A DNA stretch of 10,324 nucleotides from a virus: UHGV virus genome UHGV-1724002; one strand, 5' to 3'. Position 1 is the stretch's first letter, and the number at the start of each line of letters is the position of its first letter. The notes under the pieces are model-generated. The model did no database searches and had not been told where the DNA came from. It saw only the letters and a program-made list of their open reading frames with translations. A program made the translations under genes and the position numbers. This document shows positions 1 through 9,224 of this stretch, piece by piece.

Positions 1-663
1 CTTGCCGTACCCCTGGTAGTTTTACGCCATTCCCTGAACTGTGTTCTGAATGCCGAAGCTGCGTTTTTCTTCCCGGCTTTCCGCATGCCTGCACACCAGA
101 ATATTTCCTCGAATGCCTTGTCGGTTTCTTCGTGACGGTCATGTGATTTTTCACACTCCGTCCGAACACTTTCGGACATAGTGTTTTTATTATTTCTTTT
201 TTCTTTGTAATAGTTTCTTTTGTGTGTCCCTGTTTTGGTGACAGCGCTGTCACCGTTTTGGTGACACTTTTTGTCACCAATGCAGTGACATTATCACCAG
301 AGTAGTGACACCCTTCTATTTGCCATTCCTCGATGTTCTTGTTAGGCCCGATTTGCTGGCCTTCGCGAAGGATAACCTTCATCGCGATAAGCTCATTCTT
401 GGCCTTGTTTACCTTCTGTCTTGGCAGCCTGGTAATTTGAGCTAACTGACTATCAGAGATGCGATCCATCTTTTTACCGTAGCCGTATGTTTTACGGCAT
501 ATGGCGTGGGCAACCTTGCTCTGATTTTCGTTAAATCTGCGCCGATAAGCTCTTCATACAGGGCATTTGCAAGACGGGTATAACCATCTTCAACTTCTGC
601 CACACGACGCTCCACAGGCCGTTGTGAAGGCCTTAAATGTGTTACGGTTGCAAGATTACTCAT
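1..663 (-). CDS. O: Replication initiator, lambda O family (5' partial at window edge; apparent -1 frameshifts near 525-528 and in the AT-rich stretch ~184-202)
   Basis: N-terminus from ATG 663 reads ...VAEVEDGYTRLANALYEELIGADLTK, matching lambda O (..VADLDDGYARLSNMLLEAYSGADLTK..). After the T4 run at 525-528 the -1 frame continues with lambda-O-like ..CRKTYGYGKKMDRISDSQLAQITRLP..GPNKNIEEW... SD gaaggagaaagg precedes the ATG. Iterons and AT-rich region lie inside the gene as in lambda. Confidence 0.65.
183..310. repeat. Putative replication origin: about four dyad-symmetric iterons built on GGTGACA/TGTCACC (233-310) beside an AT-rich stretch (183-229)
   Basis: Direct reading: GGTGACAgcgcTGTCACC (237-254), GGTGACActtttTGTCACC (259-277), GTGACAttaTCACC, GTGACAcc at roughly 20-bp spacing, then a T/A-rich tract. 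The layout mirrors lambda ori inside O. Confidence 0.55.
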
Positions 664-1267: not shown

Positions 1268-1477
<210 letters not shown>

Positions 1478-1494
1478 TTAGTACATGCAACCAT

Positions 1495-1561
1495 TATCAC
1501 GCTAGAGGTAAAATAGTCAACACGCACGGTGTTAGATATTTATCCCTTGCGGTGATAGATT
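1495..1561. promoter_or_regulatory. Right operator region: OR1 (1495-1510, 16 bp, atypical), OR2 (1518-1534), OR3 (1541-1557), with PR (-10 rc 1494-1499, -35 rc 1515-1520, leftward) and PRM (-35 1533-1538, -10 1556-1561, rightward, leaderless cI)
   Basis: OR2 CAACACGCACGGTGTTA and OR3 TATCCCTTGCGGTGATA match lambda exactly. OR1 reads TATCACGCTAGAGGTA against lambda TATCACCGCCAGAGGTA. Confidence 0.9.
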
Positions 1562-1564
1562 TAA

Positions 1565-2281
<717 letters not shown>

Positions 2282-2367: not shown

Positions 2368-3273
2368 ATGTCGATTAACAGCAATAGCGAATCCCTGCAT
2401 CAAATGCAGCTTTTCCCTGTAGTAGAGGTTGTTTCTGATGATATTCCTATGGGCGTTCTCAATGATGGAACTCCTTACCTAACTCTCTACGGTCTCGCAA
2501 AGTTATGCGGCATTGATGACACGCCACTGAGGGTGTTCACATCAAACTGGAACACAGAGAAAAACAAACCCAGAGGTCAAAAAGTAGCTGCGTATTTAGC
2601 TGAGAAAGGGTTTCATAACGTCGAAAAGCTATACACTCGCGTTTTAAATAGCTCAAACGTGGAAACTCATGCTTATCCTGACTATGTTTGCATGGCTATC
2701 CTCCGTTACTACGCTCTAGATGCCACCAATTTTGATAGGTCAGTCGCAATAGGTAATTTTGTTCGCTTGGCTGAGTACACGCTTAAGCGAATGATTTATG
2801 AAAAGTCAAATTACAACCCAAATGCTTCAATAGATATCTCATTCGAGAACTATAGAGCAAGGATTAAGCTAAACGATCAGATACCGACAACTCATTTTGC
2901 AGTATTCAGAGAGATAGCTGACATTGCCATGAACCTGATCGGAGGAGGATTCCCAATGGATGACACCACATCTTTGGATGGAAGTGTTGGAATTCACTGG
3001 GGAAAGTATTGGACAGCTAATGGGCTATCTGAGAAATTCGGGGAAAGGGTGCAGTACCCACATTTATTCCCCGAAAATTACAGGCAGTCAGCTGCAAATA
3101 AGCATATAACAGCTTGGATTTATCCTATTGAGGCACTTGGCGTGTTCAGAAAATGGCTACACGATAATTACGCAATGGAAAAACTGCCAAATTACCTTGG
3201 GAACAAAAAGATTAGTAACGCCTCCGAGCTATTAGAGTCGATAAAAAAACCAGCACTCCCAAATAAGCATTGA
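2368..3273 (+). CDS. Hypothetical 301-aa protein in the rexAB-equivalent slot; possible KilA-N-like N-terminal domain; candidate BstA-like abortive-infection/exclusion protein
   Basis: Single uninterrupted ORF between cI and the tIMM-like terminator, same strand as cI, AT-rich by eye, SD aagga upstream. N-terminal segments DGTPYLTLYGLAKLCGIDD and ..THAYPDYVCMAILRYY resemble the KilA-N/APSES pattern from memory. Not search-verified. Confidence 0.8.
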   Translation: MSINSNSESLHQMQLFPVVEVVSDDIPMGVLNDGTPYLTLYGLAKLCGIDDTPLRVFTSNWNTEKNKPRGQKVAAYLAEKGFHNVEKLYTRVLNSSNVETHAYPDYVCMAILRYYALDATNFDRSVAIGNFVRLAEYTLKRMIYEKSNYNPNASIDISFENYRARIKLNDQIPTTHFAVFREIADIAMNLIGGGFPMDDTTSLDGSVGIHWGKYWTANGLSEKFGERVQYPHLFPENYRQSAANKHITAWIYPIEALGVFRKWLHDNYAMEKLPNYLGNKKISNASELLESIKKPALPNKH

Positions 3274-3310: not shown

Positions 3311-3461
3311 TGCCTAACGCCCCCAAAAAACGCATAACCAATTGTATTTATTTCAAAATTAATAGATACAACTCACTAAACATCGCAATTCAGATCTCTC
3401 GATCACCTTCCCAATCCACACAACCCTGCAAAAAATAAATCTATATAAAAAACATACAGAT

Positions 3462-3531
3462 AACCATCTGCGGTGATAAATTATCTCTGGCGGTGTTGAC
3501 ATAAATACCACTGGCGGTGATACTAAGCACA
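3462..3531 (+). promoter_or_regulatory. Left operator region OL3 (3462-3478), OL2 (3482-3498), OL1 (3506-3522) and PL promoter (-35 TTGACA 3496-3501, -10 GATACT 3519-3524, start near 3531)
   Basis: Near-identical to lambda OL/PL: TATCTCTGGCGGTGTTGACATAAATACCACTGGCGGTGATACT. Confidence 0.92.
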
Positions 3532-4996: not shown

Positions 4997-5964
4997 ATGA
5001 GTGAAGTAACAGACTTAGTTGTTATTGAAAAAGCAAATGCAATGACTGTATTTCAGTCTGCAGACCAGATTGAAGAAATTCTCCAAAAGGTTGAACGTGA
5101 AGTTATGTCCTTTGTGCCTGATATCACAACGGCAAAGGGCAGAAAGGAGATCGCTTCTCTGGCGTATAAGTTGCGCAGACGAAAACATATCTCGATGGTC
5201 TTGGCAAAGACCTTGTTGCTGAACTGAAGGAAATTCCAAAGCTAATTGATGCCAACCGCAAGACAGTGCGCGATCGCCTTGATGAACTGAAAGCCAAGGC
5301 TCGCCAGCCTCTTACTGATTATGAGGAGGAACAGGCACGGATTAAAGCCGAAGAAGAAGCTAAGGCAGCAGCTGAAGCTCTCGCAAAGCAAATTGAGTCT
5401 GACCATGAAATAGCGATTTTGATGGATCGCGAATTTGACCGCCAAAGAGAAGAGGCAAGACTCAAAGCGGAGCAGGAAAAGCGAGAGCATGAAGAACGCT
5501 TAAAAAGAGAAGCTGAAGAGAAAGCCAGAGCAGAAGCCGAAGCAAAGGCAAAAGCCGAAATTGAAGCAGCAGCAAGGCGAGAAGCAGAAGCTAAGGCCGC
5601 AGCGGAGCGTGCAGAGCGTGAGCGCATTGAAGCCGAGCAACGAGCACAGCGCGAAGCAAAAGAGGAAGCAGAACGAGCTGAAAGAGAAAAGCAGGCAGCA
5701 ATTGAAGCAGAACGCAGAAAAGCACAGGAGGAGGCTGAACGAATCCGTCGCGAGGCTGAAGCAAAAGAGCAAGCCAGAATAGCAGAAGAAAAAAGAATCA
5801 AGGACGAAGAAGAGCGTAGAGCAAAGGATAAAGCTCACCGGAAAGAAGTAAATAACAAAATACTTGCTGACCTTATCAAGGTTGGCGCATCAGAAGATGT
5901 TGCTAAAAATATCATAACAGCCATCGTAAAAGGCGAAGTATTCGCAACAAAAATAACCTACTAA
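4997..5964 (+). CDS. Highly charged coiled-coil protein (E/A/R/K-rich) with short N- and C-terminal domains; apparent -1 frameshift near the A4 run 5182-5185
   Basis: SD ggagga before ATG 4997. N-terminal frame ..KEIASLAYKLRRRK stops at 5227 while the -1 frame is open from 5170 and continues ..TYLDGLGKDLVAELKEIPKL.. into a long EAEAKAKAE-type repeat region, ending ..NNKILADLIKVGASEDVAKNIITAIVKGEVFATKITY. Confidence 0.6.
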
Positions 5965-6361: not shown

Positions 6362-6650
6362 TAAGCGTGAAATATCGCAAATAATCGCAAGTTTTACTGA
6401 TGAAGATTACGAGCGAATCAACAGTGAAGTTGATCGCCTCTGCAAACGTTGCGACCCAATAAGCGAAATGCTTCGCTCATATAAACCAGATGAACACACT
6501 AAGGACGCTATCGACTGGCTGGAAGATGATGACTGTAACTATCAGGAAAAAGCCGCTGAATGGTTCTGGGATGCAATAACCGAAAGAGTTAAGGCTGAAT
6601 ATGCCTTCGCAATATTCAAACGCAGACACATTTTTGGAGAAGCAGCATGA
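6339..6650 (+). CDS. Hypothetical 103-aa protein immediately upstream of recT (occupies the lambda gam position)
   Basis: SD aggag before the tandem ATGs at 6339/6342; its stop overlaps the recT start (ATGA). No homology to lambda Gam recognised. Confidence 0.6.
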   Translation: MMILTLNDKREISQIIASFTDEDYERINSEVDRLCKRCDPISEMLRSYKPDEHTKDAIDWLEDDDCNYQEKAAEWFWDAITERVKAEYAFAIFKRRHIFGEAA

Positions 6651-7557
6651 GCAATATCGTTGAATTCGTTAAACAGCAGGAGCAGTTATTCTGCGGAGCA
6701 TTGACTGAACAGACGGTGACATGGGCTAAGGAAAGCCAGTTTGCAATTCAGTATTTCCAGAAAAATGATTACCTGGCTAAAACAGCACTGGCAAATCCAA
6801 CCAGCGCACAGAACGCCATCATCAATGTTGCGGCGATCGGTATCACCTTAAACCCGGCTAGCAAACTGGCTTATCTGGTTCCGCGCGACGGCATGGTTTG
6901 CCTTGATATCAGCTATATGGGATTGCTACATATTGCAATGGAGTCTGGTGTTATCTCATGGGGTCAGGCAAAGCTTGTTCATGCTAACGATACTTATGAG
7001 TCAAACGGACTTGATAAAGCACCAACCATAAATACAACGCCTTCGGTGATCGTGGCGATATCGTTGGTGTTTACTGCACAGTTAAGACGCCAGCAGGTGA
7101 TTATCTAACGGAAGAGATGAGTCTGGCTGAAATTGAGGCTGTAAGGAAAACAAGCAAGGCGGCATTCAGCGATAAAGGACCATGGGTAAATCACTGGAAT
7201 GAGATGGCGCGAAAGACGGTCGTAAAGCGTGCAAGCAAGTATTGGCCTAAGGCATCACGTCTTGATAGTGCTATTCACGTACTAAACGAAGAAGAAGGTG
7301 TATGGACTGAACCAGTTATGCCGCACAAATCAGAGGAAGATATCCGCGAAGATGAACGGAAACGCCAGCAGGAAATAACGGATAAAGCACAACTTCTTTG
7401 TGATGAAATGGCTCAGGCTGAAAACATGGATGATTTGAAGAGATATTTTGCAGAAGCATATCGCCTGACATCTGGAATGAAATTGCAGCAAAACGTACAA
7501 GCCATTTACGCAGAATGCAAAGCGAAACTGGAGGTTGCCAGTGAGCAAACTGTATGA
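6647..7557 (+). CDS. recT: RecT-family single-strand annealing recombinase (apparent -1 frameshift near 7016-7030)
   Basis: Downstream half contains ..GPWVNHWNEMARKTVVKRASKYWP.., matching the RecT motif GPWVTHWEEMAKKTAIRRLFKYLP. The upstream ORF frame stops at 7108; the -1 frame is open from 7018 and reads ..HKYNAFGDRGDIVGVYCTVKTPAGDYLTEEMSLAEIEAVRK.., joining the two track ORFs 6647..7108 and 7117..7557. Confidence 0.8.
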
Positions 7558-8349: not shown

Positions 8350-8528
8350 CAAAGAGGAATTTACCATGAGATGACTTGCATACAACCCCGGCATTCTTCC
8401 TGCAGAATGATTATTCGCCAACGCGTAAAGCCAATGCCATCGAGAGAGGAATTGCTTAAGAGAAAGAGTTTCGGTTCTGTTAATGACAACAAATATCTGA
8501 ATGCGATGTTGCGCAAAGGAGGCAACCA

Positions 8529-9224
8529 ATGAGCGAAATTAATTACCAGGCACTGCGTGAGGCGGCACAGAACGCGAAAGATTTAGGTGGGATTAAGAAT
8601 TACAAGCGAGGTGAGCAAGCTGTTGCCGAATTTGAGTCCTTAATAACGCCACACATTGTGCTGGCGCTTCTGGATGAACGGGAAAGAAACCAGCAATACA
8701 TCAAACGCCGCGACCAGGAGAACGAGGATATTGCGCTAACGGTAGGGAAGCTGCGCGTTGAGCTTGAAGCAGCAAAATCAAAACTCAACGAGCAGCGCGA
8801 GTATTACGAGGGAGTAATCGCGGATGGAAGTAAGCGTATTGCTGAACTGGAGAAAAGCGAAGAGCAACTCATCAACGAGCGTGACCATGCTGAGTCTGCT
8901 TTAGCTGATATGTATTTTGCAGCAACCGGGGATAGGCCTGAGTGGAGCAACTGGTTCGGCTTTTCAGATGCTGTCGATGCCGTGGTTGACAGAATTGCTG
9001 ATTTAGAAGCTAAACAGCCATCGCCAGTAGTGCCGGATAATGCATCAGAGTCTCTTGCTTATGCTTACAAAGAGCTTACGCCTGAGATTATGCGCGGTCA
9101 TATCGCTGTATTCGAGCGATATGGAATAGCCCCAAACGATAGCATTACCACAATTCAGGCACTGCGAATCGCGCTGGATGGTATAGAGCGGAGCAACGCC
9201 ATGCTTCAGGGGAAAGGAGAGTGA
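8529..9224 (+). CDS. Hypothetical 231-aa coiled-coil protein, possibly Ead/Ea22-like
   Basis: Strong SD aaaggagg before the ATG; a central region of coiled-coil character; position corresponds to the lambda ea22 neighbourhood. Family call is from memory and weak. Confidence 0.7.

Follow-up and report, generated by a model that had tools for sequence, protein, structure and literature searches.

The shortened OR1 operator assembled in a 10,324-nucleotide stretch of lambdoid phage DNA (here, the window) is very probably a normal 17-bp OR1 of the HK97/mEp234 type, misread in a low-coverage assembly. The initial annotation had treated the two departures of this operator from lambda, a single C in place of CC at 1500 and a C-to-T change at 1503, as one lesion. 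We find that they are separable: the C-to-T change occurs naturally in plaque-forming phages with lambda immunity, and the missing C is private to this contig. From the pattern of events along the contig, rather than from reads, we infer a technical and not a biological origin for the deletion.

An exact protein match to the truncated recT fragment identifies the window as the complete contig ena:ERZ504554:NODE_1596_length_10324_cov_2.019516, which comes from one sample only and has about 2x k-mer coverage (cov_2.02 in the contig name). The contig carries the early region, reversed relative to the lambda map, of a mosaic lambdoid (pro)phage that has lambda immunity. Any single phage or Escherichia coli genome covers at most about 55% of the contig, reflecting typical lambdoid mosaicism, and the imm-lambda, N, recT/Gp157 and Ea22 modules each have a different nearest relative.

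As assembled, OR1 lies at 1495-1510 on the minus strand and is the 16-bp sequence TATCACGCTAGAGGTA (lambda-strand reading, TACCTCTAGCGTGATA), corresponding to the 17-bp CI/Cro operator annotated in lambda as operator-r1 (NC_001416, 37998-38014), which is TATCACCGCCAGAGGTA, or TACCTCTGGCGGTGATA on the lambda strand. This record bears out the lambda OR1 that the initial annotation had given, and confirms its description of a 16-bp site that is one C short at 1500 and carries a C-to-T change at 1503. The assembled operator lacks the 17-bp pseudo-symmetric form of the site, and in place of the consensus half-site TATCACCGC the window reads TATCAC-GC, one C of the CC being absent; we attribute the missing length to assembly, not biology. 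The location is that of OR1, over the spacer and -10 hexamer of the PR promoter, beside OR2 and OR3 and between the divergent cro and cI genes, and the homologous site in mEp234 (EF120460) is annotated as 'operator oR1, Cro; CI' inside the 'immunity region'.

PR, for which mEp234 also carries a homologous annotation, occupies 1493-1520 on the minus strand, with a -35 hexamer TTGACT at 1520-1515 and a -10 hexamer GATAAT at 1498-1493. OR1 covers the promoter-proximal part of the spacer between these hexamers, together with the first four bases of the -10; its earlier placement between the -10 and the start was wrong. Because the missing base falls within the overlap of OR1 and the spacer, the assembled PR spacer measures 16 bp, compared with 17 bp in lambda. 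On the lambda strand the contracted CC is a GG at positions 6/7 of the consensus half-site. Among the values tabulated in PMC2194778, substitutions at G13/G14 (consensus-half positions 7/6) cost 2.9-3.7 kcal/mol, the largest in OR1. The earlier expectation that a shortened OR1 would weaken repression of PR is thus sound in principle for a position of that cost, but it missed the accompanying change in the PR spacer.

At 1503 the window has T for the C of lambda, which on the lambda strand is a G-to-A change at 8' of the non-consensus half-site. This base marks a natural OR1 allele, shared with phages HK97, mEp234, HK106, CL707 and PhiR5_2, and the window has it on an otherwise lambda-identical OR region, together with the linked CI haplotype (T2A, K70N). 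Of 557 matching records of complete E. coli genomes, 82 contain an exact 65-mer that combines the T allele with a 17-bp OR1; an exact 96-mer that has the T allele and extends from OR1 into cI is present in at least 124 out of about 620. In crystal-structure numbering this base is G10; according to the Sarai and Takeda values as re-tabulated in PMC2194778, its change to A costs 0.4 kcal/mol of CI binding, an approximately two-fold change in Kd that ranks among the smallest effects in the operator. The C-to-T half of the supposed lesion is an ordinary, already known and widespread natural allele, and we reject it as part of any lesion given its identity with the HK97/mEp234 allele and its exact matches in the E. 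coli genome records.

The T allele of OR1 occurs with Ala2 of CI in 124 E. coli genome records and with Thr2 in 0, and canonical OR1 occurs with Ala2 in 38, counts that come from non-independent records and include clonal strains such as O104:H4. The pairing of OR1-T with Ala2 agrees with plain nested descent and with linkage across about 70 bp. We do not claim co-adaptation of the OR1 G-to-A change with CI T2A, as only three of the four haplotypes exist.

The missing C is different in kind, a private one-base homopolymer contraction. Alignment to the OR1 of lambda-immunity relatives, a check that the initial annotation had proposed, shows a 17-bp operator with CC in all 11 relatives aligned, and the OR regions of the E. 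coli 503440 and AVS0969 prophages are base-for-base the same as that of the window except for CC. A second example of the 16-bp OR1 was sought by megablast with queries of 66 bp and 261 bp: the 66-bp query around the operator has no 100% match in 556 E. coli records (complete genomes), and the 16-bp OR1 has none in 34-36 phage records. Exact 26-mer and degenerate 22-mer patterns, in scans that also accepted the canonical C at the polymorphic position, returned none in GTDB representative genomes, IMG/VR or JGI metagenomes.

The contraction in OR1 has company. Alignment of the window to 13 related loci, with reading frames compared by tblastn, reveals seven private one-base deletions, each shortening a homopolymer of 2-6 bases, at about 1 per 1.5 kb; six of the seven put out of frame genes that every relative checked has intact. 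Two of them fall in the O-like replication gene (window 1-663), where TTTT is reduced to TTT at 204-206 and TTTTT to TTTT, causing a second frameshift, at 525-528. A third, TTTTTT to TTTTT at 883-887, is private by comparison with mEp234, the closest relative in that stretch; after it, the match to cII (region 747-1130) breaks off near residue 82 of 99, with the open reading frame continuing to 747. The reduction of AAA to AA at 5168-5169, which could be compared with one relative only, divides a 322-aa gene into open reading frames at 4997-5227 and 5266-5964, the private loss of one C from CCC at 7026-7027 splits recT into 6647-7108 and 7117-7557, and a further private AAA-to-AA contraction at 8406-8407 frameshifts a DUF2737 gene (8366-8532). 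The genes between the contractions are intact, namely cI, cro, N, DUF2740, Gp157 and two hypothetical genes. The frameshifts in the O-like gene, cII, the 322-aa gene, recT and DUF2737 are best read as low-coverage assembly errors.

The sole private insertion is one half of a compensated +T/-T pair at 680/687, 7 bp apart within the DUF2740 open reading frame. The pair leaves the DUF2740 frame intact while altering a few residues, and may reflect either natural variation or two separate errors.

Elsewhere in the immunity region, the other operators are unchanged. OR2 (1518-1534), OR3 (1541-1557), OL3 (3462-3478), OL2 (3482-3498) and OL1 (3506-3522), all on the minus strand, have 0 mismatches each to lambda, as the initial annotation had stated. 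The cro gene (1268-1468, minus strand; Pfam Cro) is intact and encodes 66 aa, and cI (1568-2281, plus strand) is likewise intact at 237 aa, with the natural variants T2A and K70N relative to lambda, the former giving an N-terminal arm of SAKKK. Between cI and OL, in the slot where lambda has rexA/rexB, lies a plus-strand open reading frame of 301 aa at 2368-3273. It encodes an abortive-infection defence protein of the BstA family (PADLOC BstA, E = 1.3e-105; Pfam BstA_C on the source contig), and has no match in a local Pfam copy. Downstream of this gene, a tract of C and A runs at 3319-3329 (CCCCCAAAAAA) varies in length among all relatives by gaps of 1-3 bases; the tract is naturally variable or error-prone, and lies close to the expected immunity-region terminator.

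Collectively, the events that break conserved sequence in this 2x contig are deletions only and fall in homopolymers only, and they therefore carry the signature of consensus error rather than of natural divergence. Low coverage, repeated gene-breaking events of the same type and absence of the variant from independent sequences coincide here. On this basis we propose that OR1 is in reality most likely a 17-bp operator, the allele of HK97/mEp234 type TATCACCGCTAGAGGTA (TACCTCTAGCGGTGATA on the lambda strand), from which the assembler consensus would have dropped one C of the CC, as in the six other contractions. Such an operator would be a functional CI/Cro site, one low-impact base from lambda at 8' of the non-consensus half, and the switch would operate as in lambda or HK97, with CI dimers filling OR1 and OR2 cooperatively and occluding PR, and nothing virulent-like about it. 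Seven random contractions would have a chance of about 7% of striking at least one of the six operators, and one operator hit among seven is unremarkable. Two points tell against an artefact: CC is the shortest possible homopolymer, and a decaying prophage could likewise gather one-base homopolymer deletions. The first had been taken to make the missing base less easily dismissed than the losses in long runs, a view that does not hold because three of the other events are in three-base runs (AAA, CCC and AAA), which places a contraction in a two-base run in character. The sequencing platform of ERZ504554 was not found in the literature; were it Illumina, a count of seven indels in 10 kb would be high even for 2x coverage.

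The second point leads to the reading in which the deletion is real and belongs to a decaying, defective prophage, the OR1 lesion being a further neutral mutation in an element already dead, with no regulatory consequence that matters as replication is already lost. Multiple frameshifts in essential or conserved genes do resemble a cryptic prophage, and pseudogenes and IS insertions are also seen in other relatives in complete genomes. Decay of this kind is nonetheless unlikely in the window, where all seven events are of one type, and neither nonsense mutations nor larger deletions nor IS elements occur; cI, cro and N are perfectly preserved, as is every other operator; and coverage is 2x. 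Private indels are also numerous relative to private substitutions, seven compared with no more than about 20 across 5.4 kb (3-11 relatives), with 2 such substitutions in the 1028-bp cro-cI region (11 relatives). Moreover, established lambda biology suggests that a prophage with a dead OR1 and intact cro and PL/kil would be unstable or toxic.

A real deletion in a wild lambda-immunity phage, leaving OR1 without CI/Cro dimer binding and PR with a 16-bp spacer, is very unlikely. The initial annotation had offered a virulent-like lesion or a sequencing error; the latter is favoured, and the former sits poorly with a unique deletion, about 2x coverage and six other contractions. Were the deletion real, the half-sites would lie one base closer and be rotated relative to each other, and binding of CI and Cro dimers at OR1 would be essentially lost. 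OR2 would then have to fill cooperatively without its nucleating site, and PR, weakened by the 16-bp spacer, would be repressed through OR2 and OL-OR looping rather than through OR1-nucleated cooperativity. This natural rewiring of the switch would make the phage a rare wild example with lambda immunity that lacks the operator nucleating cooperative repression, and would inform how well the switch withstands losing OR1.

That a viable phage carries the deletion as a selected regulatory mutation (for instance as a virulent-like, clear-plaque or PR-down variant), with an operator-dead OR1, a 16-bp PR spacer and the other frameshifts as errors, is extremely unlikely: the lost base is among the two most CI-sensitive positions of OR1 and a one-base change in half-site spacing would be expected to abolish dimer binding, but the proposal requires one real contraction beside six identical-looking errors, the OR2 and OL hits that classical lambda virulence needs are both absent, these operators being wild type here, and the 16-bp OR1 is absent from more than 590 related OR regions. 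For the contig as a whole, the lesson is one of quality control, in that its single-base indels, regulatory or genic, need read support before biological interpretation.

Like low-coverage homopolymer miscalls, the window combines one-base contractions in runs, broken conserved open reading frames and coverage of about 2x, a likeness of pattern rather than of reads. Operator-constitutive or virulent OR1 mutations of lambda, such as v3 of lambda vir, are laboratory-selected base substitutions that lower the affinity for CI, and in lambda virulence they are combined with mutations in OR2 and OL. The deletion in the window, if real, would likewise lower CI affinity at OR1, but it is a one-base deletion rather than a substitution, it also changes the PR spacer, and it stands beside wild-type OR2 and OL; we reject a classical lambda vir genotype, as OR2, OR3 and OL1-3 are identical to wild-type lambda. 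Compared with lambda itself, the window has OR1 in the same place in PR and with the same consensus half-site bar the missing base, and identical OR2, OR3 and OL1-3; lambda has C at the equivalent of 1503 and CC at the equivalent of 1500. The closest counterparts are wild phages. Records of this kind, that of mEp234 among them, come from a 2007 study by Degnan et al. of wild phages with lambda immunity specificity. In HK97, mEp234, HK106 and CL707 (EF120459-EF120461, NC_002167), OR1-OR2-OR3 and their flanks are the same as in the window, the T allele included, and the CI variants, an SAKKK arm and K70N, are common to both; these phages have the full 17-bp OR1, from which the window, as assembled, differs by one C.
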